64,000 bases of DNA from Candidatus Lloydbacteria bacterium (GCA_043719805.1 JAYSTI010000055.1:2760-66759), one strand, 5' to 3'. Shown: positions 12,067 to 46,101, counted from the stretch's first letter. The notes: generated by a model not told the origin, from the sequence alone. Numbers and translations are program-made.

Positions 12067-12095
12067 CCCACTGCGATTTGCAGTGGGTTTTGTTT
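12067..12095. terminator. Bidirectional intrinsic terminator CCCACTGC-gattt-GCAGTGGG flanked by A and T runs
   Basis: gaaaaaCCCACTGCgatttGCAGTGGGttttgttt. It serves convergent efp (+) and the 12094..12627 gene (-). Confidence 0.55.
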
Positions 12096-12627
12096 ACGGA
12101 TGGGTGAGGCCGTGGGAGGCGAGGATCTGCTTGTAGAGGTCATCGGGATACGGCTCGATACGGAGCTTGAGTGCGAGGCCCTGTGCGCGCTCCCAGCACG
12201 TGCCGGTCGAGAACTCCCACCCCGGAAGAAAGTACAGAGTACCGATGAGTCCGCTCTCGAACAGCGGAAGATAGATGTCGGTGAGAATTGGCCAGCAGTA
12301 GCCGGTATTTGCCGGATTGCTCTTCCATTTTTCCCACATGCGAACAAGTCCTTCTTCGAGTGGCGTCTGATCAAACACGTGGTCGCCCCGTTCACGGAGC
12401 AGGCGCACAGCTTCAGAAAACACGAGGAAATTCAGCTTCACGGAATTGAACCCGCCGGTGGTGATAGGCCCGCACACCTGAATGATTGAACCGTGCTTCC
12501 GCTTGGGAAAACTCCGAAGCACGCACTGTGCGACGTCACTGATATCGGCGAATGAATCCGCGGCAAGCACGGACGAACGTAGCGCCTTCGTCCAATGTGG
12601 ACATTTTTTCATCACGGCTCCTGTCAA
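12094..12627 (-). CDS. DUF4406-like protein (nucleoside 2-deoxyribosyltransferase-like fold) with an N-terminal extension
   Basis: SIIQVCGPITTGGFNSVKLNFLVFSEAVRLLRERGDHVFDQ resembles the (I/V)Y(I/L)xGPxTG...N...F...L...GxxVxxP pattern I recall for DUF4406. The family call is from memory, not a search. Confidence 0.4.
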   Translation of the reverse strand: MTGAVMKKCPHWTKALRSSVLAADSFADISDVAQCVLRSFPKRKHGSIIQVCGPITTGGFNSVKLNFLVFSEAVRLLRERGDHVFDQTPLEEGLVRMWEKWKSNPANTGYCWPILTDIYLPLFESGLIGTLYFLPGWEFSTGTCWERAQGLALKLRIEPYPDDLYKQILASHGLTHP

Positions 12628-24949: not shown

Positions 24950-27900
24950 CTAGGACTTTGTGATGACGAGTGCATCGCCGGCACTAAAGCTATCGGCGCC
25001 GATGATGGAAGTGGCTTCCGTGCGATATTTTTCGAGGAGGGCAAACTGTTCCTTTGGTGCGGAGACGGTGATGCGGTCGCTCGGATTGAGGCCGGCCTTC
25101 TTGCGCATGTCCTGAATGGTGCGGACGAGGTCACGGAGCTGGCCCTCTTCTTTGAGTTCCGGCGTAAGCGCAATATTGAGCGACACGAGCAATCCCGCAT
25201 TTTCACTTAATTTATGCTCACTGTTGTTTTCGGCGGTCACACGAATCTCTTCGTCAAAGATGACCTGCTTTACGTTCACTTCGTCACGGATGATGCCGAG
25301 CATTTCATCACTGATGGGTTTTTTGTCTGCAGTCTTGTATGAAAGTTCGGAAAGCGGTTGTCGCACCTTCATCCCGGCCTCGGCGCGAAGCGCGAGTGCA
25401 GCTTCGACAATTTTTCTGGTGGTCTCCATCTCATCAAGAATACTACTCGCGGCAACACCGACATCGGACCAACTTTCAAGATGGATGCTCTCTTTCTTCT
25501 CTTCAATCGTGAGGCGCTGATAGAGGTCCTCGGCAATGAACGGCATGAAGGGTGCAATGAGTTTCGAGAATTGAAGCAATATCCATCCCGTTGTTTCTGC
25601 TGCCGCCGCACGATCATCCGCGTCATCAGATTTAAAGCGGTCGCGGGAGCGGCGCAGGTACCACGTCGAAAGATCATCCAGGAACGGCATGATGGGGCGC
25701 GTAGCACGGTCGAGCTCATGTGTGTCGAGATGATGCGTGACTTCGGCGTGCATTTCAAACCAGCGCGCAACAATCCAACGATCAAGCACATTCCTCGACT
25801 CAGGCTGAAGTCGCGTGATGATGGAATCTTTCGCATACATCTCAAGGAAAGAGCGGACGTTGTCGAGGCGAATGGTGATCTTCTTGTACACCTCATCAAC
25901 GCCGAGCACGGAAAAACGCAATTCTTCGCCTCGTACAATGGGCGAGTTTATCATGTAGAATCGCAGTGCATCTGCGCCGTATTTCTCCGCGACTTCCATC
26001 GGGTCGGGATAATTCTTTAGCCTCTTCGACATCTTTGCCCCATCTTCAGCAAGGATAAGCCCGGTCGTAATGACGCTCTTGAATGCCGCACGATCAAAAA
26101 GTCCGACTGAAAGTATCAGCATCGTGTAGAACCAGCCTCGCGTCTGATCGACCGCCTCGGCAATAAAGTCTGCGGGAAAATTCTTCACGAACATTTTCCC
26201 GTCTGGAGTTGTCTCATCGCCCAAGTAATGAAATTGTGCAAAAGGCATGGAGCCGGACTCAAACCAGCAATCAAAAACTTCCGGGATACGATTCATGGTC
26301 CCTAGCTCGCAAGAGCATTGATAACTCACCTTATCGATATGTGGACGATGATAGTCGAGCTCGTAGCGCTCATTGTGTGGGACGTTCACGAAGGAAAGAG
26401 CACGCACTTCGGCATAATTCACATAATCATCCCCTCCGCGATCGCGCATCTCTGCCGCCTCCTCGTTGGTCGCACCGAGAGCCACGGCCTCCATCATCCA
26501 CGTGCCATACTCATGCGTGACGAGGAGAATATTTTTCCCCTTATACTTCCCTTCAATGTCATAAAGAAATTCAGCAACACGCATGCGCATGTGCTCCATC
26601 GTTTCACCTCCGGGTGGTTCCTTGGTGAACTTCTCAAGCGTGTTCGCAAAGTAGTTACGATACATATCGATATTCTGACCGTTGAAGTCTCCCGTGTTTA
26701 CCTCTGCAATACGCGAATCAACAACAATATCACCCACAGGAATACCGTGGGCCTCCGCGACAATGGCCGCAGTTTCTCTTGTGCGCTGCACGGGCGAAGT
26801 GATGATGAGGTCAAACTTGCGATCTTTCAGCTTCGTTGCAGCAGCCTTCACTTGCGCACGACCCTTTTCAGTCAGATGAATGTCGTCCTCTTCTTTGCAG
26901 CTGATGATGTTCTGCGTATTCGAGTCGGCTTCCCCGTGACGCATGAATGTGTAAGTATTCGCGCTTCCGATGTTTTTTTTAAGGTCGCCCAATGAACCAA
27001 TCACGTCCACTTTGCCGCACTTATTGCATTTCCACACAGGCAAAGGTGCGCCCCAGTAGCGTGAACGTGAGATTGCCCAGTCACGTGCGCCCTCAAGCCA
27101 TTTACCGAAACGTCCGTCGCGAAAATTCTCGGGAATCCAATTGATTTCCTTGTTCTCTTCGATGAGGCGGGGCTTGAGCGCGGTCACATTTACGAACCAC
27201 GACGACGCTGCATAATTTAAAAGCGGGGTATCGCAGCGCCAGCAATGAGGATAAGAGTGGGTAAGATTTTCTTTTGCAAAAAAAGTTCCATGCTCCTGAA
27301 GATACTTGAGCACGGCAATGTCAGTTGTGAGTCGGACTTTGTCGTCGTCGCTTTTTGGTTTGACGTGCATGCCAGCAAAATCTTTTACCTCAGACTTCAT
27401 CGTGCCGTCCATCTTGACGTGCTGAATCATTGGAAGCTTTAATTTTTTCGCAAGCTCCATGTCTTCTTCGCCGAACGCCGGTGCTTCGTGAACAATACCC
27501 GTGCCGCTCTCGACGGTCACAAAGTCTGCGCCGACAACCTTCCATCCGTTCTCACGATTCTCAAGCTTTTCATCGGACGTGTAATAATCAAAAAGCGGTT
27601 TATACGAAAGTCCGATGAACTCCTTGCCCTTTCGCTCCTCCACAACTTCGTGATCTTTGTCTTTGAATACGCGCGTCACAAGATCCTTCGCAACAACGTA
27701 GCGCTTGCCCGAATAGAGCACAATGGCATACACAAACGCCGGATTGACGGCGACGGCAACATTGCCCGGCAATGTCCACGGTGTCGTCGTCCAAGCGATA
27801 AGATGCGTACCCGGCTCTAGGACAAGCTCAAATGTGACGTAGACGGAAATATCTTTGATGTCCTTGTACCCCTGTGAAACCTCAGAAGCGGCGAGTGTTG

Positions 27901-28465
27901 TCTCGCATCGCGGACAAATGTGCATCGATTTGAATCCATCGTAAATCAGTTTTTTGGCGTGAAGTGTTTTGAACGCCCACCAGACACTCTCGGTGTACGA
28001 GGAGTCCATTGTTTTGTATGCATGCTCCATGTCCACGAAGCGCCCCATGCGCGGGACAATACTTTTCCACTCTTTGTCATACGTCATGACACTTTCTTTT
28101 GCCTTCTGATTGAATGCGCCGATGCCGTAGGCCTCGATATCACTCTTTTGTTTTAGTCCCAACTCTTTCTCAACGAGATTCTCAATCGGCAACCCATGGC
28201 AGTCCCACCCCCACTCTCGGCGTACGTAGCGACCGCGCATCGTCTGATAACGCGGAATGAGGTCTTTGATGGTTCCCTGGAGGAGATGCCCGTGGTGAGG
28301 GAGCCCTGTCGCGAACGGAGGTCCGTCATAAAAAACGTAGGATTCTTTCCCTTCGTTCTGCTTCAGTGACTTCTCAAAGATATTCCGCTCTTTCCAAAGT
28401 GCGAGGACGGCCTTCTCGCGTTCACTGATCGATTGTTTCTTGTCATTTATCGGCGTTTCATCCAT
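24950..28465 (-). CDS. ileS: Isoleucyl-tRNA synthetase (type 2) carrying an inserted histidine-phosphatase domain (RHGEADSN...H) of about 200 aa
   Basis: HIGH motif (PHHGHLL), CP1 editing domain, WAISRSRYWGAPLPVW and KMSKRL. The insertion FMRHGEADSN...TSPVQRTRETA...LLVTHEYG lies between the CNKCG and CSCELG zinc-knuckle halves. Confidence 0.9.
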   Translation of the reverse strand: MDETPINDKKQSISEREKAVLALWKERNIFEKSLKQNEGKESYVFYDGPPFATGLPHHGHLLQGTIKDLIPRYQTMRGRYVRREWGWDCHGLPIENLVEKELGLKQKSDIEAYGIGAFNQKAKESVMTYDKEWKSIVPRMGRFVDMEHAYKTMDSSYTESVWWAFKTLHAKKLIYDGFKSMHICPRCETTLAASEVSQGYKDIKDISVYVTFELVLEPGTHLIAWTTTPWTLPGNVAVAVNPAFVYAIVLYSGKRYVVAKDLVTRVFKDKDHEVVEERKGKEFIGLSYKPLFDYYTSDEKLENRENGWKVVGADFVTVESGTGIVHEAPAFGEEDMELAKKLKLPMIQHVKMDGTMKSEVKDFAGMHVKPKSDDDKVRLTTDIAVLKYLQEHGTFFAKENLTHSYPHCWRCDTPLLNYAASSWFVNVTALKPRLIEENKEINWIPENFRDGRFGKWLEGARDWAISRSRYWGAPLPVWKCNKCGKVDVIGSLGDLKKNIGSANTYTFMRHGEADSNTQNIISCKEEDDIHLTEKGRAQVKAAATKLKDRKFDLIITSPVQRTRETAAIVAEAHGIPVGDIVVDSRIAEVNTGDFNGQNIDMYRNYFANTLEKFTKEPPGGETMEHMRMRVAEFLYDIEGKYKGKNILLVTHEYGTWMMEAVALGATNEEAAEMRDRGGDDYVNYAEVRALSFVNVPHNERYELDYHRPHIDKVSYQCSCELGTMNRIPEVFDCWFESGSMPFAQFHYLGDETTPDGKMFVKNFPADFIAEAVDQTRGWFYTMLILSVGLFDRAAFKSVITTGLILAEDGAKMSKRLKNYPDPMEVAEKYGADALRFYMINSPIVRGEELRFSVLGVDEVYKKITIRLDNVRSFLEMYAKDSIITRLQPESRNVLDRWIVARWFEMHAEVTHHLDTHELDRATRPIMPFLDDLSTWYLRRSRDRFKSDDADDRAAAAETTGWILLQFSKLIAPFMPFIAEDLYQRLTIEEKKESIHLESWSDVGVAASSILDEMETTRKIVEAALALRAEAGMKVRQPLSELSYKTADKKPISDEMLGIIRDEVNVKQVIFDEEIRVTAENNSEHKLSENAGLLVSLNIALTPELKEEGQLRDLVRTIQDMRKKAGLNPSDRITVSAPKEQFALLEKYRTEATSIIGADSFSAGDALVITKS

Positions 28466-29346: not shown

Positions 29347-30123
29347 TCATTGTTTCATTTCCAACATCATTTTGGCAACGGACTTTTTCAGTCGGCGCTC
29401 AAAACTTTTTCGTGTTCCGTTATTCGTGACGACGGCATGTGCATGCGGGCGTAGAAGGCGGATCTGTTCCTCTGCTTCAGCTTTTCCCAACTCAAGGAAT
29501 TGCGCATACGAGAGCTCGCTATCGCCCGGCTTTTCATTTCTCAGCACGTGGCGAGCGAAACGAACCTTCGGGTCCGCCTCGACATACATGAGACGGAAAG
29601 GATTGTACGCATCACTCATGAGCGTGGTGATGTCGACCAATCGACGAATGCCCTCGATGATGACGCACGTGCAATCATCCCCTGCTTGTGCGACGCGAAA
29701 TTTGACCGCACGCTCGAGCGTGTCTTCACCGAAAAATCGTCGCACTGCGGTCGAGAGCGTCTGCAGGTCGGCAGTACTCGCGCCGTTCGGCCAAACTCCG
29801 CTGTGTTCCGGCATAAACCGTCCGACAAGCCAGTATTCAAACTCGCGAAACTGAATGTAGCAAGCACCTGATGCACCGAGGTCAGAACCGAATGCATGTT
29901 TCAAAATATCGACGAGGTGCGGACCAAGACGATCTCCAAAAAGCGCAGGGGTTTTGTTCTCGCGCAAATGCGGAAAATTTTCAAGGAGTAGTCGATAGAA
30001 TTCGCGCAGTGAATCCGAAAAACGGAATGACGGCGTACCCGGATACCACGCCTTGACCAGGTCGGTAGCTGAACCCTTACCGCTGGACATTTCGCCGGCG
30101 AATCCCAACATCAGTTTTTGCAT
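29347..30123 (-). CDS. P-loop nucleotide kinase, T4 dNMP-kinase-like, long paralog with a C-terminal extension
   Basis: LGFAGEMSSGKGSA Walker A and CVIIEGIRRLVDITTL. It is a paralog of the 32714..33271 gene. Confidence 0.5.
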   Translation of the reverse strand: MQKLMLGFAGEMSSGKGSATDLVKAWYPGTPSFRFSDSLREFYRLLLENFPHLRENKTPALFGDRLGPHLVDILKHAFGSDLGASGACYIQFREFEYWLVGRFMPEHSGVWPNGASTADLQTLSTAVRRFFGEDTLERAVKFRVAQAGDDCTCVIIEGIRRLVDITTLMSDAYNPFRLMYVEADPKVRFARHVLRNEKPGDSELSYAQFLELGKAEAEEQIRLLRPHAHAVVTNNGTRKSFERRLKKSVAKMMLEMKQ

Positions 30124-32713: not shown

Positions 32714-33271
32714 TCATTCGCCGTATTTTTTGACGATGGCGTCAAGCTGCTGCTTAAGTTCGGGCATTGTCCCGGCGTTGTCGATGACCTCCGCGGCAAA
32801 CGCTTCGAGCTTCGTTATCTCGCGCTCGGGCTCCCCTTCGTGGTCATCTTCAAACTGCATGAACGTCTTTGACGAATCATCGGCATTTTCTCCCCGAATA
32901 ATGAGCCGCTCATAGCGTATCTTCATTGGCGCGGTAATGTAGCAAAGCTTAAACTCGGGAATTTCACGAAGATACTTTACGTCCTCGAGGCGCCTCACGC
33001 CGTCGACAATGATAAGCTGGTGTTCGTCCTTCTTTGCGTCTTCAAACATCACCTTCGCCATCAAATCCTCACCGAATTCTTTTCGCAAAAGCGTCGATGT
33101 GCGCTGCATAGTTGCGCGGTCCTGGGGTAGGTGCAGGCGACTGAGGATGTCGCGAAGCATCGTTGAGAATCGATAGGTGACCGCACCATGGTGTTCTGCC
33201 AAATATTTTGCCGCAGTTCCTTTCCCCGCCGCCATTTCCCCCGCAAAACCGAGAATCAATTTTTTCGCCAT
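32714..33271 (-). CDS. P-loop nucleotide kinase, T4 dNMP-kinase-like (185 aa)
   Basis: LILGFAGEMAAGKGTAAKYL and QLIIVDGVRRLEDVKYLREIPEFKLCYITAP resemble the phage dNMP kinase pattern (xSGKDT ... DVRF..E...). The family call is from memory. Confidence 0.5.
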   Translation of the reverse strand: MAKKLILGFAGEMAAGKGTAAKYLAEHHGAVTYRFSTMLRDILSRLHLPQDRATMQRTSTLLRKEFGEDLMAKVMFEDAKKDEHQLIIVDGVRRLEDVKYLREIPEFKLCYITAPMKIRYERLIIRGENADDSSKTFMQFEDDHEGEPEREITKLEAFAAEVIDNAGTMPELKQQLDAIVKKYGE

Positions 33272-34301: not shown

Positions 34302-34727
34302 CTAGTCAGCAACGGTGACACCCATCGAGCGGGCGGTTCCTGCGACAGTCTTCATTGCGGCTTCAATGGAAGCGGCATTCAAGTCCGGCATTTTCTTTTC
34401 GGCAATTTCGCGAACCTGAGCCTTGGTGATGGAGCCGGCCTTTTGTGTCCCCGGCTTGTTCGATGCCTTGTCCTTACCCATCGCCTTCAAGATGAGGCGT
34501 GAAACAGGAGAGACCTTCAGAATAAAGGTGAATGTGCGGTCTTCGTAGACGGTAATCTCGACAGGAACGATGTCGCCCATCATCTTTGCGCTAGCCGCAT
34601 TGAATTTTGTGACGAAGTCTCCGATGTTGATTCCGGCCTGTCCGAGTGCGGGGCCTACCGGTGGAGCAGGTGTTGCCTTGCCTCCGGAGATCTGCAATTT
34701 AAGCTTTTTGGTGATTTTTTTTGCCAT
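34302..34727 (-). CDS. rplK: 50S ribosomal protein L11
   Basis: [35 protein letters not shown]. Confidence 0.95.
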
Positions 34728-34796: not shown

Positions 34797-35360
34797 TTAA
34801 ATCTTTTTTATCTGCAAGAAGTCGAGTTCCACGGGTGTTTCGCGGCCGAACATGGGGACCATGACCTTCACGCGCCCACGCTCGGTATCCACTTCGCCGA
34901 CGCGTCCCTCAAGCTCCTTGAACGGTCCGTCGGTAATAATGACCGATTCGCCAACTATGAGGTCAATTGCGTGCTTCACCATCTTTGAACCCATGCGTCC
35001 GAACAATGCGTCGATCTCTTTTTGATTGAGAGGTACAGGAACGACACCGGCGCCAACGAAGCCCGTTACGCGCGGAGTGTTGCGCACGACATACCAAGAG
35101 TCGGGATCATAAATCATGTTCACAAGCACGTAGCCCGGATATATTTCCTCTTCGACTTCAGCGCGCTTGCCGGCCTTCATCTTAATCTTCTTTTCCTTTG
35201 GGACGACAACATCAAAAATCTTGTCTTCCATGCCGAGTGACTCGATGCGCTGTCGCAAATTGCGTACAACCGCATTCTCATACCCTGAGTATGTGTGGAT
35301 GGCATACCACTGACGCGTCGGGGCTGCGGGCGTCTCGGGAACGTTGTTCTCTTCTTCCAT
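34797..35360 (-). CDS. nusG: Transcription termination/antitermination factor NusG
   Basis: NGN domain WYAIHTYSGYENAV plus a C-terminal KOW motif. Confidence 0.9.
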   Translation of the reverse strand: MEEENNVPETPAAPTRQWYAIHTYSGYENAVVRNLRQRIESLGMEDKIFDVVVPKEKKIKMKAGKRAEVEEEIYPGYVLVNMIYDPDSWYVVRNTPRVTGFVGAGVVPVPLNQKEIDALFGRMGSKMVKHAIDLIVGESVIITDGPFKELEGRVGEVDTERGRVKVMVPMFGRETPVELDFLQIKKI

Positions 35361-35380: not shown

Positions 35381-35569
35381 TTAATTAACGCCCATGAACT
35401 GCTTGATTCCGCTGGAGAACACGAAATCGAGTAAACCGAGAAAGAGTCCTGTTCCTATAGAAATAGAAATAACGATAAGCGTATAGCTGACGGCTTCTTG
35501 GCGCGTTGGCCACGTCACGTGTCGCATCTCCGCCCTTGTGTCCTTCAAATAATTGATGAATCCCATCAT
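35381..35569 (-). CDS. secE: Preprotein translocase subunit SecE
   Basis: FINYLKDTRAEMRHVTWPTRQEAVSYTLIVI plus a single TM helix. Start taken at the tandem ATGs (MMGFIN). Confidence 0.75.
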   Translation of the reverse strand: MMGFINYLKDTRAEMRHVTWPTRQEAVSYTLIVISISIGTGLFLGLLDFVFSSGIKQFMGVN

Positions 35570-35705
35570 ACAAGTGAAATTAACCTCATAATTGCCCCTA
35601 AGAAAAAACCCCCTCGGGGTGTCATTGATTTGCTTAGTATATGCGCCCCTCCGCAAAAGTCAAGGACGAAAAACTCGGCTAAAACATTGGGGAATGTTCG
35701 GTCGC

Positions 35706-35733
35706 GGAAAGAAAAAAGGTCCCCGAAGGGACC
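35706..35733 (-). terminator. Minus-strand terminator GGTCCC-ttcg-GGGACC followed by TTTTTTCTTTC, at the 3' end of the high-GC island
   Basis: Plus strand reads gaaagaaaaaaGGTCCCcgaaGGGACC. It lies 40 nt downstream of the gene ending at 35772. Confidence 0.5.
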
Positions 35734-35771
35734 CTGGAAATGCTTGAACGATTGAACGAACGAAAGAACGG

Positions 35772-36227
35772 TCAGTTGGCGCGCGTCGGACGAGAGCGGC
35801 GCGGATGCATCTCGTCGTAGTAGTCGACGCCGTCGAGGATGATGTCGGCCCAGCCCGAGAGCATCTCGTTGTGCTCTTTCGGGAGACGATCATAGTCGCA
35901 CTTGCCCCACAACACGCAGGACGGGAGGAACGGCTTCCGCTCACCCTGCTCGGGGAGCGAAACGGTGACGATGTGGTCGCCATCCTTCCAGCGGGAATAC
36001 GGGTAGACGCGGATCACCATGCGCCCACGGCGGTAGTCGAAGAACGAAGTGACGCGAATGTACACGATTTCGTGCATCGCCGGATAGACGACGTAAATGC
36101 CGGGAACACCGAGGCGGGCCTTCCAGAGACGCTCGTCTGCGACGTCTTCGAGTTCGATCTCCGGAGCAGCGCGCTCCGTATTACGACGAGGAAAGTCCAC
36201 CACGCGGGAAACACTCAGATTGGACAT
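35772..36227 (-). CDS. Hypothetical protein (151 aa), high-GC island gene 1
   Basis: GC-rich codon usage. GAAGGA RBS 6 nt before ATG 36227. Confidence 0.55.
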   Translation of the reverse strand: MSNLSVSRVVDFPRRNTERAAPEIELEDVADERLWKARLGVPGIYVVYPAMHEIVYIRVTSFFDYRRGRMVIRVYPYSRWKDGDHIVTVSLPEQGERKPFLPSCVLWGKCDYDRLPKEHNEMLSGWADIILDGVDYYDEMHPRRSRPTRAN

Positions 36228-36315
36228 GTCAGTTCCTTCAGAAACGTTTTGAATAGGTTGAAGTACCCACGACGCGCCGCTTGTGACGGCGAATCGTGGG
36301 CAGGAGGTTGCCTGA

Positions 36316-36999
36316 TCAGCGAACGCCCATGATGGAGAGCGCCATCTCGAGGTATCCCTTCAGGCCGCGAGTGCTCGCGAAGCGTGCCTTCGGCGCCTCG
36401 GTGTGCCCGAAGAGCTCATCGCGAAAGAAACTGCACCTCGCGAAGAGGACTAGCGGATGACCGACGCCACCGAGCACCGTCATCTTCACGCGCTCGCCGT
36501 GCTTGCCCGAAACCACTTCGAGGCCAAAGTCGATGCGGGAGTGAGCCCTCTCGACGTTGATCCCGAAGCTCACCACAGGCCGCTTGCCGTTCGCCCTGAT
36601 TGCGCGAACGAGGACCGAGAGGGTGCCGGTGTCGAACTCATCGAACTGCTTGAACGGGACTTCGTCCCAGACAGCATTGTCCGAGAGCTCGTCCACGTGC
36701 GGCGCCTTCGGCTTCGGTGCGGGCTTGGCGGGCGCCGTGATGACCTCGACGAGCACTGCGGCTTCCGGTGCGGACGCGGCGGGTTCGGCGAGCGCGACAA
36801 CGAACACGCCGTGTTCATCATCGGCGATCGGCAGAGCCGTCGGGTCGGTGGCGACAGTCGCGTCGACGACGGGCTCGTCATCGGGCGGAAGGTCGTTGCC
36901 GAAACCGGCGAGCGCGAACGCAGTGGCGAGTGCGGGGGTGAAGGGAGCGACACCGTCTTCGAGGTCGCGACGGTCAATGTTTCGTGACTTGTTGCTCAT
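36316..36999 (-). CDS. Hypothetical protein (about 227 aa) with an Ala/Pro-rich linker (PAKPAPKPKAP), high-GC island gene 2
   Basis: Start at MSNKSRNID, with GGAGTCTCTACC immediately upstream of the ATG. Confidence 0.55.
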   Translation of the reverse strand: MSNKSRNIDRRDLEDGVAPFTPALATAFALAGFGNDLPPDDEPVVDATVATDPTALPIADDEHGVFVVALAEPAASAPEAAVLVEVITAPAKPAPKPKAPHVDELSDNAVWDEVPFKQFDEFDTGTLSVLVRAIRANGKRPVVSFGINVERAHSRIDFGLEVVSGKHGERVKMTVLGGVGHPLVLFARCSFFRDELFGHTEAPKARFASTRGLKGYLEMALSIMGVR

Positions 37000-37221
37000 G
37001 GTAGAGACTCCTGGTGGTTGAAAATCAAAAAATAAACACGGATTGACAAGGAAACGGACGCACAAAATACTCACTTCGGGTTTAATCCCCAAGAGAACAT
37101 TTCTAGAATCCTCAACAATTGTAGCAGAATTTCAGTAAAAGTCAAGTGTATTTCCATACGCATTGCGAGCACCAAAACTGCAGAGGACGGGCTTCTGCAG
37201 TTTTGGAAACGCTGTGTGAAA

Positions 37222-37248
37222 AAACGCCGTATTTCAGGCGTTTTTGGG
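37222..37248. terminator. Bidirectional hairpin AAAACGCC-gtatttca-GGCGTTTT, a terminator downstream of island gene 3. A second 13-bp inverted repeat lies at 37176-37210.
   Basis: Read directly from the sequence. Confidence 0.45.
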
Positions 37249-37325
37249 GACTAACGAATGGCGGGCGCATTCATTGAATCGGTGTGCACAAGGAGAATTA
37301 CTTCCCGCCCCCTCTTTTGTTGGTG

Positions 37326-38510
37326 CTAGGTCGGAGTCGCGGGAAGAATCTTCACCACACATCCCGTGGAATTGACGATTCCCATAAAAGTTTTGCCCGC
37401 TTCAAAGTCGGCCGAATATCCCTCTGTTTTTTGAGAAAACGCATAACGCCGCCCAGCTCCATCTTGCGTAACGGCGTAGCCGAGTTCAAGTTCTGGACTG
37501 AAAGTAACGATCTTTAGCAAGAACGGCTCGGAAGAGCGGTGCGGACGGATTGTCGCCGTTGAAGCGTTTGCGGGTGCAACCACTGCGTCATCGGAAAAAT
37601 ACTTGAAGTTGAGCTTCTCTGCTCCTGCGGGAGTGGTTGCTGTGGGCGCTGACCAAGGAGCTGATGCGGGCTGACCGGCTCCTCCGCAACATTTGCCGGT
37701 ATCGCAAGAACATTGCATAGATGCACAACCATTTTCGCCGCAACATGATTTCGGTGTGACGACATCAGTGGGACGCGTCGCCTCAATCTCCGAGAGCGAG
37801 GAGGGCATTCCGCTCATTCGCTGGCCTCCGGAAGTCGCGATTGGGTCGTCATAGAGACGATGCTCTTTTAGCTCATCGAGTTCGCAATCACGCACATCCC
37901 GTACTTTCCTCTCGGCAAGGCGCCATCGCAGCAGGAGAAAAGCGCACAACGCAAACATCGACAGCGCGACGAGGCCCATCAATGAAAATTGAAGTTGGCC
38001 TTGCTGGTTCGCTTCCTTCAGACTCGCAATCATCTGTGACATCTCTGCGAGATCAGCTTTCAAAGCAGCACGCTCTGCTGCAAATTGCGCAACGTCTCTC
38101 CGAATCTCGTCTGCAAAAATTGCCGACTGGTTTCTCTGGACGGTGACCACAACTCCAACAGAAAGGTGTCTCCACGCTCGGTCGGTGTGATTGACGCCCG
38201 AAAGCGCTGAAGCGTCTTTCCAGTACTTCTCCCACTCGTGGAGCGGGCGCTTTTGTGCGATGAAGTACGCCCAGAGTGACTTCCACTCACCGAGTGAAAA
38301 GTTTTCCGTTGTCGCAATCGGGGGAAGTACTGCGACTTCAGCCACGTCCGACATTACGAGCTTACGTCCTGTCACAACGACGACCTGGGATTCCGGCACA
38401 GCCGATGCGGCAGGCGCCTCGGCGGATTGCACTATGCCGATTGCGGATGCTGACGATACAAGACACAGCGCGGCGAAGAAAGTCGCGAGTGAACGAATAA
38501 TGCTCCTCAT
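37326..38510 (-). CDS. Hypothetical signal-peptide protein with a central TM helix and a Cys-rich cluster (SCCGENGCASMQCSCDTGKCCGG), high-GC island gene 3
   Basis: Signal peptide MRSIIRSLATFFAALCLVSSASA. Strong RBS AAGGAG-tctcta-ATG at 38510. TM segment LMGLVALSMFALCAFLLL. Confidence 0.55.
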   Translation of the reverse strand: MRSIIRSLATFFAALCLVSSASAIGIVQSAEAPAASAVPESQVVVVTGRKLVMSDVAEVAVLPPIATTENFSLGEWKSLWAYFIAQKRPLHEWEKYWKDASALSGVNHTDRAWRHLSVGVVVTVQRNQSAIFADEIRRDVAQFAAERAALKADLAEMSQMIASLKEANQQGQLQFSLMGLVALSMFALCAFLLLRWRLAERKVRDVRDCELDELKEHRLYDDPIATSGGQRMSGMPSSLSEIEATRPTDVVTPKSCCGENGCASMQCSCDTGKCCGGAGQPASAPWSAPTATTPAGAEKLNFKYFSDDAVVAPANASTATIRPHRSSEPFLLKIVTFSPELELGYAVTQDGAGRRYAFSQKTEGYSADFEAGKTFMGIVNSTGCVVKILPATPT

Positions 38511-38656
38511 TAGAGACTCCTTTTTGAATTTACATCTCAAGAAACTCTACTCGGTATCATTTCTGATGTAAAGATAGTCTTTGTTTCGTCGTCGCTCGGC
38601 TCGAGCGCACATGGCACATGCACACTGAGACCTCGCTAGACGAAATCAAAATAAAA

Positions 38657-38680
38657 TAGCCCCTTGTGGGGGCTATTTTT
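38657..38680. terminator. Bidirectional terminator TAGCCCC-ttgt-GGGGCTA with flanking A/T runs
   Basis: aaaataaaaTAGCCCCttgtGGGGGCTAttttt. Confidence 0.55.
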
Positions 38681-38704: not shown

Positions 38705-39544
38705 CTAGCGCACCTCGTAGGTGATGGTCACACTGGAGGTGTACTTATTCTCTCCTGCGGGAATATTTGCAGCCTCCGGTGCAACATCAGCCGACGTTGC
38801 CTTCATTTCCATTCCCCCGCGCGCATAATTATACGTAGGGTAGTTACTTCCCTCGCTGAAAGAAGTAATACGCACAATGTCGACACCGAGCTGCGCTGCG
38901 AGTTTCTTTGCTTTTGCCTGCGCCTTCTCTATTGCTTCTTTGCGTGCCGACTCCTTCACGACGTCTTCGTCGTCAACGGTGAAAGTGAGCCCGCTTACAT
39001 ACGATGCACCTTTGTCGGAAAGTCCGCCGAGGACGAGTCCGGCATCATCAATCTCGTGGATACGCACGTCTACGGACTGCGTCACTTCATACCCGACGAG
39101 CACCTGCTTCCCCTCCTGTGGCGGGCAATTATATCCCAAAGCACATGGGACGTAAGCGCCGGTCTTCTGCCACTCATATTTTGGATTCAGGTTATATGCG
39201 GTCGTTTTAATATCCTTATCTTCAACCTTCGATTCCTCAAGAAAAGCGTGGATGGCTTTCATCTTTCCATCAACCAGCTTCCGTGCCTCAGGGGCAGTCT
39301 TTGCTTCGTCGGTAATTGAAAACGAAATCTCCGCGATATCAGGAATCGCATATGCTTCGCCTTCCCCCGTGACATTGATGGAAGTCTGCTCACCCGGCAC
39401 ATCTCTCCCGATAAACTGATAGGACTTTAATTCTCCCACAAAGAGTGCAAGCAAAAAGAGCGAGCCCGACACGATAAGGAGTAAGGCTCCCGCGACGACG
39501 GGCTTCTTCCAACACTTACCGGTGCAAGGACCCTTGCAGCCCAT
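38705..39544 (-). CDS. SIMPL-domain (BP26/DUF541) protein with a Cys-rich N-terminus and a TM anchor
   Basis: The central and C-terminal regions match the SIMPL pattern (INVTGEGEA...AEISFSI...). N-terminus MGCKGPCTGKCW. Start taken at M12, which has a GAGGAAG RBS. Confidence 0.7.
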   Translation of the reverse strand: MGCKGPCTGKCWKKPVVAGALLLIVSGSLFLLALFVGELKSYQFIGRDVPGEQTSINVTGEGEAYAIPDIAEISFSITDEAKTAPEARKLVDGKMKAIHAFLEESKVEDKDIKTTAYNLNPKYEWQKTGAYVPCALGYNCPPQEGKQVLVGYEVTQSVDVRIHEIDDAGLVLGGLSDKGASYVSGLTFTVDDEDVVKESARKEAIEKAQAKAKKLAAQLGVDIVRITSFSEGSNYPTYNYARGGMEMKATSADVAPEAANIPAGENKYTSSVTITYEVR

Positions 39545-39713
39545 ACACACTTCCTCGACATGATTTTCTGTTGCCATATGAATTGTAAATTAGTAAATAA
39601 TAAGCTGATTTGCATCAATTATAACACAGCAACAACAGGATTGTGACACGTGCGGGCTAAGGGGTAGAAATAGCTTTATTTTATTGACTTTCGTGTGGAA
39701 AAGAATTAAATGG

Positions 39714-40163
39714 ATGCGTTGTCCTGGTGGCAACTGCGGTGGGGATGGTCCCTGCGGCAAACTTCTTGGAGAAGTTGAAATGGTAAAAAGTTTACGCTGG
39801 ACTCAATACACATCGCGAGCGGAAGCATTCGCAGAGGAGGCGTTGCGACAGGTGCTTGGTACGCAAAAAACCTTGCTCTGGCTCTATCGCGAATGTGAGC
39901 AGGAGGAAATAGAAGAGTCGCAGGAGGAACGGAGTAGTGGCGCGACAAAACGCTACATTAACATCTCTGGCACACTCCACGAAGGGCAACGCATAAGGAT
40001 TTCCATCTTCATCGAGCGACTAGCTCGAGAGTGGCCCTTCCTCGTGAAGTATGTCGAAGTGCGGGTGAAGAACAGTCAGGAACATGCGAACGTGCACGGG
40101 GAGAAGTCGCGACTGAGGGTCTTCCTTGCACCTGAAAGCGAATTCGCGAGTCTCTTCGCATAA
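39714..40163 (+). CDS. Hypothetical protein with an N-terminal Cys/Gly-rich motif (CPGGNCGGDGPCGK)
   Basis: An intrinsic terminator follows the ORF. The start is uncertain. Confidence 0.4.
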   Translation: MRCPGGNCGGDGPCGKLLGEVEMVKSLRWTQYTSRAEAFAEEALRQVLGTQKTLLWLYRECEQEEIEESQEERSSGATKRYINISGTLHEGQRIRISIFIERLAREWPFLVKYVEVRVKNSQEHANVHGEKSRLRVFLAPESEFASLFA

Positions 40164-42101: not shown

Positions 42102-42494
42102 ATGGAAAAGCACGCTGTCCGAATTCCGCACATGATTCCGTTGCTCGATTGGAGCACGAACGGCACCTGGCAGGACACACTCAGGGAGGAGCTACTCGCA
42201 CTCCCCGCAGACACCCTCACCATGTGCATCAAAAGCGTGTCTGCCATCAATCAGGTGGGATACCCGTATGTCTTCGGTCTTCATGGGCACTCACGTGGCG
42301 GGCTATGGGAACCCATCGCAAAACTCCCCGGTTACGAGTACTGCTGGGAAACCATCGACGGGCGCACGCTCGATGAGCTGAATATTTTCGGTCCCTTTGA
42401 TGCGACACTCTTGAGTCAGATCATCGAGAGATTCGAGGCCAAGGGACTCAAGCTCGACGACCGATGGAGCCTCCTCGTCACCTTCGGGACATAG
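42102..42494 (+). CDS. Hypothetical protein (130 aa)
   Basis: Clean ORF followed by an intrinsic terminator. Confidence 0.5.
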   Translation: MEKHAVRIPHMIPLLDWSTNGTWQDTLREELLALPADTLTMCIKSVSAINQVGYPYVFGLHGHSRGGLWEPIAKLPGYEYCWETIDGRTLDELNIFGPFDATLLSQIIERFEAKGLKLDDRWSLLVTFGT

Positions 42495-44127: not shown

Positions 44128-46101
44128 GTGAACAAACAATGGCTTTTGAGAATGGCAATGTGGGCACTAGCCGCCTTCATGCTTGTTTCTGTTTTGAAGT
44201 CGCTAAAAAATAGCGAACTGACAGAAAACGGCGAGGTGTCCTATTCTGTTTTCCTCGAGGAAGTGCAGAAGAAGCACATCAAGGCAGTTCAACTACAGGA
44301 AGTCGTTGGCGGCACCAAGGTAATGGCACTCACAAAGGACGACAAGCGGTTTTTCACGATTGCGACTCATCTAGATCGCGGACTGATTGGTGACCTTATC
44401 AACAATGGCGTCCAATTCGATGTCAGAGTACCCGAGCAGCCGTCTCTCTTTGTGACAATACTCGTCAGCTGGGCACCGATGCTCCTCATGATTGGTGTAA
44501 TGATCTATTTCTTTCGCAAGATGTCCGGAGGCGGTTCCGGTAGCATTGGTGGCTTCGGAAAATCCAAGGCCCGAATGCTCGACCCTTCGACCAACAACAT
44601 CACCTTCGCGGATGTCGCAGGATGTGACGAAGCAAAAGAAGAAGTGATGGAACTCGTGCAATTCCTGCGTGACCCTGCCCAATTTCAAAAACTGGGCGGA
44701 CGTATTCCGCGGGGATGTTTGCTCGTTGGCCCTCCGGGAACAGGCAAGACCCTGATTGCAAAAGCTATCGCCGGGGAAGCCAAAGTTCCCTTCTTCACGA
44801 TTTCGGGTTCCGATTTCGTCGAAATGTATGTCGGCGTCGGCGCCGCTCGTGTGCGCGACATGTTCGTGGAAGCAAAGAAGGCTGCGCCCTGCATCCTCTT
44901 CATGGATGAAATCGACGCCGTCGGACGCCAGCGCGGAGCAGGGCTCGGCGGCGGCAATGATGAACGCGAACAAACGCTGAATCAGATGCTTGTGGAGATG
45001 GATGGCTTCGAGACCAACACCGGCGTCATCGTCGTGGCCGCAACAAACCGCCCCGACATTCTCGACCCGGCACTACTGCGCCCCGGACGTTTCGACCGGC
45101 AAGTCTACGTGACGCTGCCTGATGTACGCGGTCGTGAGCAGGTCTTGAACGTGCACATTCGCAAAGTGGCGCTGGGCAAAGACATCCATACCGACATTTT
45201 GGCTCGGGGCACACCCGGATTCTCAGGTGCGGACCTCGCAAACCTAGTGAACGAAGCGGCACTCTTTGCCGCGCGACGCAAGGCATCGGTCGTCGAGATG
45301 GCCGACTTTGAAAAGGCCAAAGAAAAAATCATGATGGGCCCCGAGCGGAAGTCGATGATCATGCCGGAAAGCGAACGCAGGAACACCGCGTACCACGAAT
45401 CGGGGCACGTGCTCGTCGCACGACTCATGCCGAAGACCGATCCGGTGCACAAGGTCACAATCATTCCTCGCGGACGCGCGCTGGGCGTCACCATGCAACT
45501 TCCCGAAGCTGACCGTTATAGCTCGGACAAGATTCGCATGCTTTCGACGCTTGCCGTCCTCTTTGGAGGCCGCATAGCCGAAGAAGTCTTCATGCAGGAA
45601 ATGACGACCGGCGCTTCGAACGATTTCGAACGCGCAACGCAAATCGCTCGCGAGATGGTGACCCGCTACGGCATGAGCGACAAAATCGGCGTCATGGTCT
45701 ATGCGGAAAACGACGGGGAAGTATTCCTCGGTCGCTCGGTGACTCAGAGCAAGAACGTCAGCGAAGAAACACTGCGGACCATTGAAGTCGAGGTCAAGAG
45801 AATTCTCGACGAGCAATACGCAGTGGCCCGAGCCCTTATCGAAGCCAATCAGGACAAAATGCACGTCATGGCCAAAACCCTCCTCGAATGGGAGACGCTT
45901 GATGCCCATCAAATCGACGACATCATGAATGATCGTCCGCCACGTCCGCCGCCTCCGGTCCCCCCCGTCGTCGACGTGAAGCCAGGCAGGCCCTCATTGC
46001 TCCACGTTCCGGGAATCGATCCCGAAGCAGCCAAGATGGCTGCGCAGTTGGGCATGCAACCCATCAGTCCGGACGACAAAGAAAAAGAAGAAAAGAAGTG
46101 A
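44128..46101 (+). CDS. ftsH: ATP-dependent zinc metalloprotease FtsH
   Basis: AAA module GPPGTGKTL with the second region of homology, plus HESGH zinc-binding. GTG start with a GAGGAGGG RBS. Confidence 0.95.

Follow-up and report, generated by a model that had tools for sequence, protein, structure and literature searches.

Small gene islets that vary between the members of a clade are known from conserved chromosomal junctions, where they combine a fixed insertion point, presence/absence variation, atypical base composition and a cargo of orphan genes, and where they may be exchanged through homology of their flanks, with no integrase or tRNA gene. Integrative genomic islands are likewise recognized by an empty site in relatives and by atypical composition, together with an integrase, a tRNA site and bracketing direct repeats. 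In addition, recombining bacterial genes reportedly tend towards a higher GC content at third codon positions (GC3), as Lassalle and colleagues are said to have found in 2015. Here, we compare these patterns with a locus on a contig of Candidatus Lloydbacteria (Patescibacteria), of which a 64-kb stretch (hereafter the window; mean GC content 50.8%) was analysed. Its NusG is 86–96% identical to that of metagenome-assembled genomes (MAGs) labelled Candidatus Lloydbacteria (Patescibacteria/Paceibacteria). The locus is an islet of about 3.1 kb with three minus-strand genes, g3-g2-g1, situated between the terminator of a SIMPL gene and the promoter candidate of secE. A previous sequence-only reading had seen in it an old, horizontally acquired island of high GC content. 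On balance, we lean towards a taxonomically restricted accessory module at a fixed site, and away from a recent foreign island or a mobile element. The islet shares all four hallmarks of clade-variable islets at conserved junctions, as well as the evidence of recombination and the absence of integrase and tRNA genes found in those exchanged by flank homology, but it is very small (3.1 kb, three genes), only partly atypical in composition, and old enough for its members to share only 27–60% protein identity.

The surroundings of NusG were surveyed in 70 related genomes. In many Paceibacteria, including the Lloydbacteria loci L010, L020, L025, L026 and L076 (related loci are given by such handles below), the gap between SIMPL and secE spans only 130–160 bp, and because SIMPL directly adjoins secE in so many relatives, g3-g2-g1 is an insertion; judging from these junctions, the ancestral arrangement had SIMPL immediately 5' of secE. 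The module itself belongs to one subclade of Candidatus Lloydbacteria, in which at least 15 related genomes carry it at this junction, in each case reading in the direction of secE (L003–L009, L011, L016, L017, L019, L021, L022, L024, L077, and L078; gap 1.6–3.9 kb), and its homologues keep the g3-g2-g1 order and orientation of the window. The g3 gene co-occurs with g2/g1 at every locus that extends far enough, and wherever the genomic surroundings of a g1 or g2 relative were inspected, they proved to be SIMPL and secE. In a rough neighbour-joining tree built on six markers, the module-bearing genomes group together, above the empty-site locus L025. The empty junction for which the sequence-only reading had proposed to look is therefore present in relatives, and its proposal of an acquired module stands insofar as an insertion into the ancestral SIMPL-secE adjacency is concerned; its foreign origin does not, as the module is conserved at this locus within the clade (in most genomes together with the GC excess treated below), largely as the refuting condition set by that reading would have it, with g1 diverging along with its flanks in the one pair compared and no homologue found outside. 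The content is plastic, since L011 has no recognizable g1, L024 lacks g1, and L017 and L022 carry an unrelated middle gene. Open reading frames (ORFs) that the family hidden Markov models (HMMs) do not recognize fill the g1/g2 position in some relatives (L011, 7073–7609; L017, 6217–6969; L022, 5675–6796), so that the module content is not fixed.

The same survey bears on whether the GC-rich segment could be an assembly chimera or a binning contaminant, a suspicion that a MAG with an abrupt compositional change naturally raises. We give it next to no credence: an exact-sequence look-up retrieved the identical arrangement from independent Logan assemblies of two runs, which excludes a chimera, homologous modules occupy the same junction in MAGs of many independent studies, and the spacers and flanks are continuous and host-like in composition.

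The three genes are genuine coding genes under purifying selection that is far weaker than that on their housekeeping neighbours. The ratio of nonsynonymous to synonymous substitution rates (dN/dS) amounts to 0.17–0.29 for g1, 0.16–0.18 for g2 (among relatives) and 0.28 for g3, as compared with 0.01–0.06 for nusG, rplK, and SIMPL. Under such weak selection the proteins diverge very fast, i.e., identity to the window copies drops to 57–64% for g1, to about 41–43% for g3 and to 40% or lower, even undetectable, for g2, in genomes whose NusG and GlmS are still 96–97% and 88–91% identical. Between the window and L003, the one pair compared, synonymous divergence (dS) was 1.63 for g1, 1.64 for nusG and 1.11 for rplK; the equality of g1 and nusG indicates that in this pair g1 was inherited together with its flanks and not recently imported.

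With regard to base composition, the sequence-only reading had described the whole region from 35.75 to 38.55 kb as 65–70% GC. The outlier is confined to g1 and g2 (35.75–37.0 kb): against a GC3 background of 57.0 ± 5.2% (n = 54 window genes), GC3 reaches 77.6% in g1 (z = 4.0) and 79.8% in g2 (z = 4.4), while g3 is compositionally ordinary (z = 1.4 for GC; GC3 54.7%, z = −0.4). The deviation is nonetheless real, with a computed GC content of 61–65%: the strongest in the 64 kb is a 1230-bp stretch starting at 35751 (62.7% GC, z = 5.15), the best 450-bp stretch reaches 66.9%, and the tetranucleotide distance of the GC-rich g1-g2 segment has a z of 6.2. Spacers had been called AT-rich, which is true for three out of four (43–47% GC), but not for the 88-bp one between g2 and g1 (54.5%). 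At four-fold degenerate sites, g1 and g2 of the window contain 1–7% A (background 21%), 50% C (32%) and 27–30% G (26%), and in the relatives both C and G are higher, and A lower, than in nusG/rplK; the GC excess of the g2-g1 unit thus resides mainly at synonymous sites, where A is avoided and C and G are favoured. Whether their background is rich or poor in GC, it recurs in most relatives over the local level, e.g., in L009 (GC3 76% in g2 and 61% in g1, background 50%), L078 (85% and 84%, background 66%) and L004 (66% in both, background 51%), as well as in L011, where g2 (65%) is accompanied by an unrelated ORF at the g1 position (68%, background 48%). The g3 gene never shows an excess.

Two further observations concern composition elsewhere in the window. 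The second-highest GC segment (up to ~60% GC, z > 2.5) belongs to a conserved housekeeping gene, ftsH (44128–46101, plus strand). The highest GC3 values of the background come from two ORFs without Pfam match, at 42102–42494 on the plus strand (0.71) and 12094–12627 on the minus strand (0.67), and because these two lead the background there are hints that raised GC3 is perhaps a more general trait of lineage-specific genes in this genome.

Such a composition could in principle be the incompletely ameliorated signature of a high-GC donor, for example an actinobacterium, from which the module was acquired in the distant past. In its favour, outgroups have an empty junction, which means that DNA did enter here at some time, the base and tetranucleotide composition departs strongly from the background, and the Ala/Pro-rich linker PAKPAPKPKAP, which had been compared with those of high-GC actinobacterial proteins, is indeed part of g2. 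Nevertheless, no actinobacterial or other high-GC donor was found among the database homologues, since searches of 1.84 and 5.8 billion proteins returned no homologues outside the clade; the co-occurring g3 has no GC excess in any genome, and sister lineages differ greatly in the size of the excess (+21 to 0 points). Integrase, tRNA gene and direct repeats are missing too. Above all, dS between module-bearing lineages is saturated (~1.6) and equal to that of the flanks, by which time a relic should have been erased; with synonymous sites saturated, we infer that the excess is not a donor relic and must be locally maintained. We therefore judge an origin from a high-GC donor improbable, and a recent foreign transfer of g1/g2 was rejected on the same grounds (no homologue in a donor lineage, dS of g1 equal to that of nusG).

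Evidence of recombination comes from L006, a closely related strain of the same series of runs, which is about 90% identical to the window at the nucleotide level across the 3' end of g3, the spacer and g1 (91% protein identity in g1) and falls to about 45% over 36700–36260, the part that codes for the C-terminal domain of g2. This domain exists in two types, A in the window (...FRDE.FG...) and B in L006 (...FPVGTAITLEEVR...). The L006 domain is 70–77% identical to those of L003, L005, and L007 (dS ~1.0) and only 20% to the window, while L006 g1 shares only 57–62% identity with g1 of the same three loci (dS ~1.9). As type B of L006 is closer to these lineages than its g1 is, a domain-sized allele has been exchanged between lineages. 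From these alignments, the g2-g1 locus is one that recombines, with a divergent C-terminal allele of g2, also present in other lineages, evidently replaced between the window and L006.

A module that is present in some members of the clade and absent from others, a swapped domain in g2 and fast evolution of all three genes could also be expected from a mobile-element or prophage remnant, or from a defence or toxin-immunity islet spreading laterally among Lloydbacteria, which we nevertheless consider very unlikely. The module always sits at the same chromosomal junction, and g1 is 91% identical despite the swapped g2 C-terminus. This lack of co-variation disfavours a toxin-immunity logic, and with no toxin or defence profile matched either, g2-g1 was rejected as a polymorphic toxin-immunity pair. 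The three proteins had no significant match in Pfam, NCBIfam or PHROGs, which agrees with the sequence-only description of three minus-strand ORFs without family assignment, and none at E ≤ 1 among the PADLOC-DB defence HMMs. A tblastn search with all three against 50,697 phage records, an IMG/VR scan with the g1 alignment and a scan of Joint Genome Institute metagenomes with g1 patterns yielded no match. No integrase or recombinase was detected among g1–g3 by their Pfam, NCBIfam and PHROG searches, and the neighbours are SIMPL, secE, nusG, and glmS. The absence of tRNA and integrase noted from the sequence was confirmed: ARAGORN reported no tRNA or tmRNA gene anywhere in the window, and no tRNA was present at the SIMPL-secE junction in 11 close relatives. 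Direct repeats that might bracket 35.7 and 38.6 kb, for which the sequence-only reading had proposed to look, were searched for without any meaningful result. Consequently, of the traits of an integrative genomic island, only the empty site and, for g1 and g2, the atypical composition were found, without integrase, tRNA site or direct repeats, and that candidate was rejected as well.

If the excess of g2-g1 is kept up locally, the likeliest cause would be GC-biased gene conversion that goes with frequent recombination of this polymorphic locus, or else selection acting on the mRNA or the codons of g2-g1. The likeness to recombination-associated GC3 elevation consists of an excess at a recombining locus, placed at synonymous sites and outlasting saturation; it differs in being confined to one 1.25-kb operon and in being partly strand-asymmetric (A to C). 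A variant by translational or mRNA-level selection, in which g2-g1 is very highly expressed and uses the C-ending codons that the highly expressed genes of this genome prefer, could draw on the strong Shine-Dalgarno sequence (AGGAG) and the near-consensus extended −10 promoter 5' of g2, and on the fact that g1 and g2 take further the four-fold C enrichment of rplK, nusG, and ftsH (42–45% vs. 32%). It seems unlikely to us, as enolase, normally a highly expressed gene, shows no such bias, in the relatives not only C but also G exceeds the level of nusG/rplK, and fast-evolving orphans with dN/dS around 0.2 are atypical of top-expressed genes.

A number of results weigh against a restricted, locally GC-enriched accessory module as we propose it. 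L005 and L021 show next to no GC3 excess, and in g1 of L008 its sign is reversed (32.5% vs. a background of 45%). The four-fold shift of the window is asymmetric, from A to C with G hardly changed, a pattern that codon selection explains no less well than biased gene conversion does. When substitutions were polarised to see whether the window lineage had gained GC, 3 vs. 1 sites were available, too few to decide, and the demonstrated recombination events amount to only one. Finally, in the rough tree L013 and the group of L010/L020/L018/L023, whose junctions are empty or short, fall among the module-bearing genomes, so that one has to assume either that the module was lost cleanly several times or that it spread laterally through its homologous flanks; an HMM search found no module remnants in the gaps of L013, L018, and L023.

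The g1 protein was modelled with AlphaFold2. With 29 family sequences the model is confident (mean predicted local distance difference test, pLDDT, 89.8; predicted template modelling score 0.77), while 6 sequences had sufficed only for a poor one (pLDDT 54.9). It comprises a disordered N-terminus, two short helices and a four-stranded antiparallel sheet (residues 43–88), followed by a conserved PFLPSCVLWGK.DYDRLP loop, a long helix (117–140) and an Arg-rich tail, and had no Foldseek match in PDB or BFVD. Because the near-invariant residues are only Ala, Arg, Gly, Leu, and Pro, none of them of a catalytic type, the conservation pattern points to a binding or structural protein and not to an enzyme. 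A g1 profile matched 26 cluster representatives among 1.84 billion proteins and a g2 profile 8 matches among 5.8 billion (the g2 family covers 13 loci), so both families appear, as far as these databases reach, tiny and clade-restricted. Profile-profile comparison found the two unrelated, whereby a kinship of g1 and g2 was discarded. Sequence and profile searches of PDB with g1, g2, g3, and the g3 ectodomain gave no match.

The N-terminal half of g2 is acidic (isoelectric point 4.2), disordered and Ala/Pro-rich, with a conserved short PFA.ALA motif, and its C-terminal domain is basic (isoelectric point 9.35). No transmembrane segment was detected (no hydrophobic 19-mer above the threshold). 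With its linker ahead of an alpha/beta domain of some 120 residues, g2 recalls the architecture of TonB, which was nevertheless rejected as a family assignment, as g2 has no N-terminal transmembrane segment and no match to TonB_C or another Pfam family, and the linker sequence of the window copy is not kept in the relatives.

In g3, the elements proposed by the sequence-only reading (signal peptide, mid-protein transmembrane helix, cytoplasmic Cys cluster) are all present. The protein starts with a signal-peptide-like segment (residues 9–27), an ectodomain and a coiled coil, crosses the membrane at residues 176–194, followed by RWRLAERKVR, and continues with a variable cytoplasmic tail that carries the Cys cluster SCCGENGCASMQCSCDTGKCCGG (residues 263–285) and a C-terminal domain of ~65 amino acids, the latter found only in the window, L006, L009, and L078. 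The family was detected in L005, L007, L021, L017, L009, L019, L022, L078, and L077. That g3 is an envelope protein is supported, but the suggested role in metal handling is weak because the family as a whole does not keep the Cys cluster, which the window, L005, and L007 possess but which is vestigial in L022 and absent in L009, L019, L021, L017, L077, and L078. A metallothionein-like cluster was rejected for the same reason, the Cys pattern not being kept across the family. Short Cys-rich segments also occur in neighbouring proteins, namely at the N-terminus of SIMPL just before its transmembrane segment (CMGCKGPCTGKC; SIMPL of L005 has a similar N-terminal motif) and in the ORF at 39684–40163 on the plus strand (CPGGNCGGDGPCG). 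The ectodomain has a conserved motif, W...H.W...W...C...I.CTD.AW+.L..G.V...P, that resembles LysM (PF01476) in its hydrophobic strand, a helix with LW..A.AQ and a subsequent L.VG.V...P. Of the 11 family members, only L021 attains the Pfam LysM threshold, with 22.1 bits, over profile positions 2–18 of 43 only, whereas the window copy has no match at E ≤ 1 and the 9 others none. Neither the ectodomain nor the family profile retrieves a LysM chain from PDB, and the ectodomain differs by an insertion of ~12 residues and a conserved Cys pair, which the window copy lacks.

We tentatively consider, based on the sequences and their predicted features, that g3 may be an envelope-anchored protein with g2 and g1 as cytoplasmic partners in a lineage-specific envelope-associated complex. 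In this arrangement, g3 would be surface-exposed and membrane-anchored, its ectodomain might contact the cell wall or a host surface, and its variable cytoplasmic tail might join in a complex the non-enzymatic g2, with its acidic disordered arm and basic domain, and g1, which would contribute a compact alpha/beta domain with a basic tail. The fast evolution, the allelic dimorphism and the presence/absence variation suggest a module at an interaction or conflict interface.

The features of the locus are listed in Table 1. The inserted genes form two transcription units, g3 alone and the g2-g1 bicistron, separated by the tandem terminators, whose region contains a perfect 13-nt inverted repeat (I9), and by a promoter-like site; the terminator hairpins predicted behind the genes in the sequence-only reading were recovered. 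The same reading had singled out an unusual leader shared by g2 and g3. GGAGTCTCTA indeed occurs exactly twice in the window, directly 5' of both genes, but it is not unusual: as a regulatory element it was rejected, being a Shine-Dalgarno sequence (AGGAG) plus spacer, and the relatives show AGGAG followed by variable bases. A search of Rfam on 34.0–40.5 kb produced only a sub-threshold chance match. In the −35 region (35650–35664 and 37132–37146, minus strand), the promoter candidates of secE and g2 agree in 13 of 15 nucleotides, CTTGACTTTTGCGGA vs. CTTGACTTTTACTGA. Between the promoter-like site and the start of secE, the 5' leader of secE-nusG contains a terminator-like hairpin with a U-tract (35608–35620, minus strand; ACCCCGAGGGGGT TTTTTC), whose U-tract context is kept in L003 and L005 and whose fold is no better than that of shuffled sequences (z = −0.24); it could be an attenuator.

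Table 1 Features of the g3-g2-g1 islet and its flanks in the window, in transcriptional order
Feature	Position	Strand	Details
SIMPL/DUF541 gene, membrane-anchored, upstream flank	38705–39577	−	Pfam PF04402, E 1.5e-47
SIMPL intrinsic terminator	38653–38679	−	11-bp stem + U-tract; −16.7 kcal/mol, z = −4.3
g3 promoter candidate, sigma-70-like, TTTACA-17-TAGAGT	38544–38572	−	consensus scan, 9/12 matches; weak evidence
g3, 394 aa	37326–38510	−	bitopic envelope protein; 54.6% GC
Tandem intrinsic terminators 3' of g3	37245–37220 + 37206–37172 (region 37172–37245)	−	−34 kcal/mol in total, z = −4.87
g2-g1 promoter candidate, sigma-70-like, TTGACT-16-TG-TACAAT	37118–37145	−	10/12 matches, extended −10
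g2, 227 aa	36316–36999	−	orphan, predicted cytoplasmic; 64.9% GC
g2 C-terminal domain cassette, swapped vs. L006	36316–36700	−	nucleotide identity drop
g1, 151 aa	35772–36227	−	orphan, predicted cytoplasmic; 61.0% GC
g2-g1 operon terminator	35716–35735	−	8-bp stem (5 G-C pairs) + U-tract; −13.6 kcal/mol, z = −1.45
secE-nusG promoter candidate, TTGACT-16-TATACT	35636–35663	−	10/12 matches
secE, downstream flank	35381–35569	−	Pfam SecE, E 1.1e-19; synteny at all loci
nusG	34797–35360	−	3' of secE
rplK	34302–34727	−	3' of nusG

Apart from the islet, two other arrangements were recorded in the window. A class I tRNA synthetase of the isoleucyl type (1171 amino acids; 24950–28465, minus strand) contains a domain of the histidine-phosphatase superfamily (PF00300, E 7e-36, residues 507–671), which splits its catalytic tRNA-synt_1 domain into two halves, likewise in L003 and L004. 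Two paralogous P-loop genes with the common N-terminal motif LGFAGEM..GKG lie on the minus strand, of which one (32714–33271) matches AAA_17/AAA_18 and, weakly, a deoxynucleoside monophosphate kinase family, and the other (29347–30123) has no Pfam match at E ≤ 0.001.

The feature is real, though of an ordinary kind, namely a conserved junction occupied by a small islet of rapidly evolving orphan genes restricted to one clade, and its points of interest are the persistent GC3 excess limited to one operon, the domain swap in g2 and the three unannotated families. It also provides a methodological caution, since a sharp GC/GC3 spike had been read as horizontal transfer; with the genes conserved at one locus and diverging together with their flanks, composition alone mis-assigned their origin. 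Being only 1.25 kb long and with a demonstrable swap, the g2-g1 unit is a test case for recombination-associated GC bias vs. codon selection in the streamlined genomes of the Candidate Phyla Radiation (CPR). The three small clade-restricted families, of which one has a confidently modelled structure without counterpart in PDB by Foldseek and one is predicted to be surface-exposed, may be candidates for lineage-specific surface or host-interaction functions. More speculatively, and with considerable doubt, g3-g2-g1 might be an undescribed envelope-to-cytoplasm interaction module of a Lloydbacteria subclade, with a new fold in g1 and a dimorphic g2 domain under balancing selection, in which frequent recombination between lineages, repaired with a bias towards GC, would generate diversity and at the same time push GC3 far above that of the genome. 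If true, biased gene conversion could be observed cleanly and on a small scale in a reduced genome, and the module would be a natural marker of the interface between episymbiont and host, or phage, in CPR bacteria.

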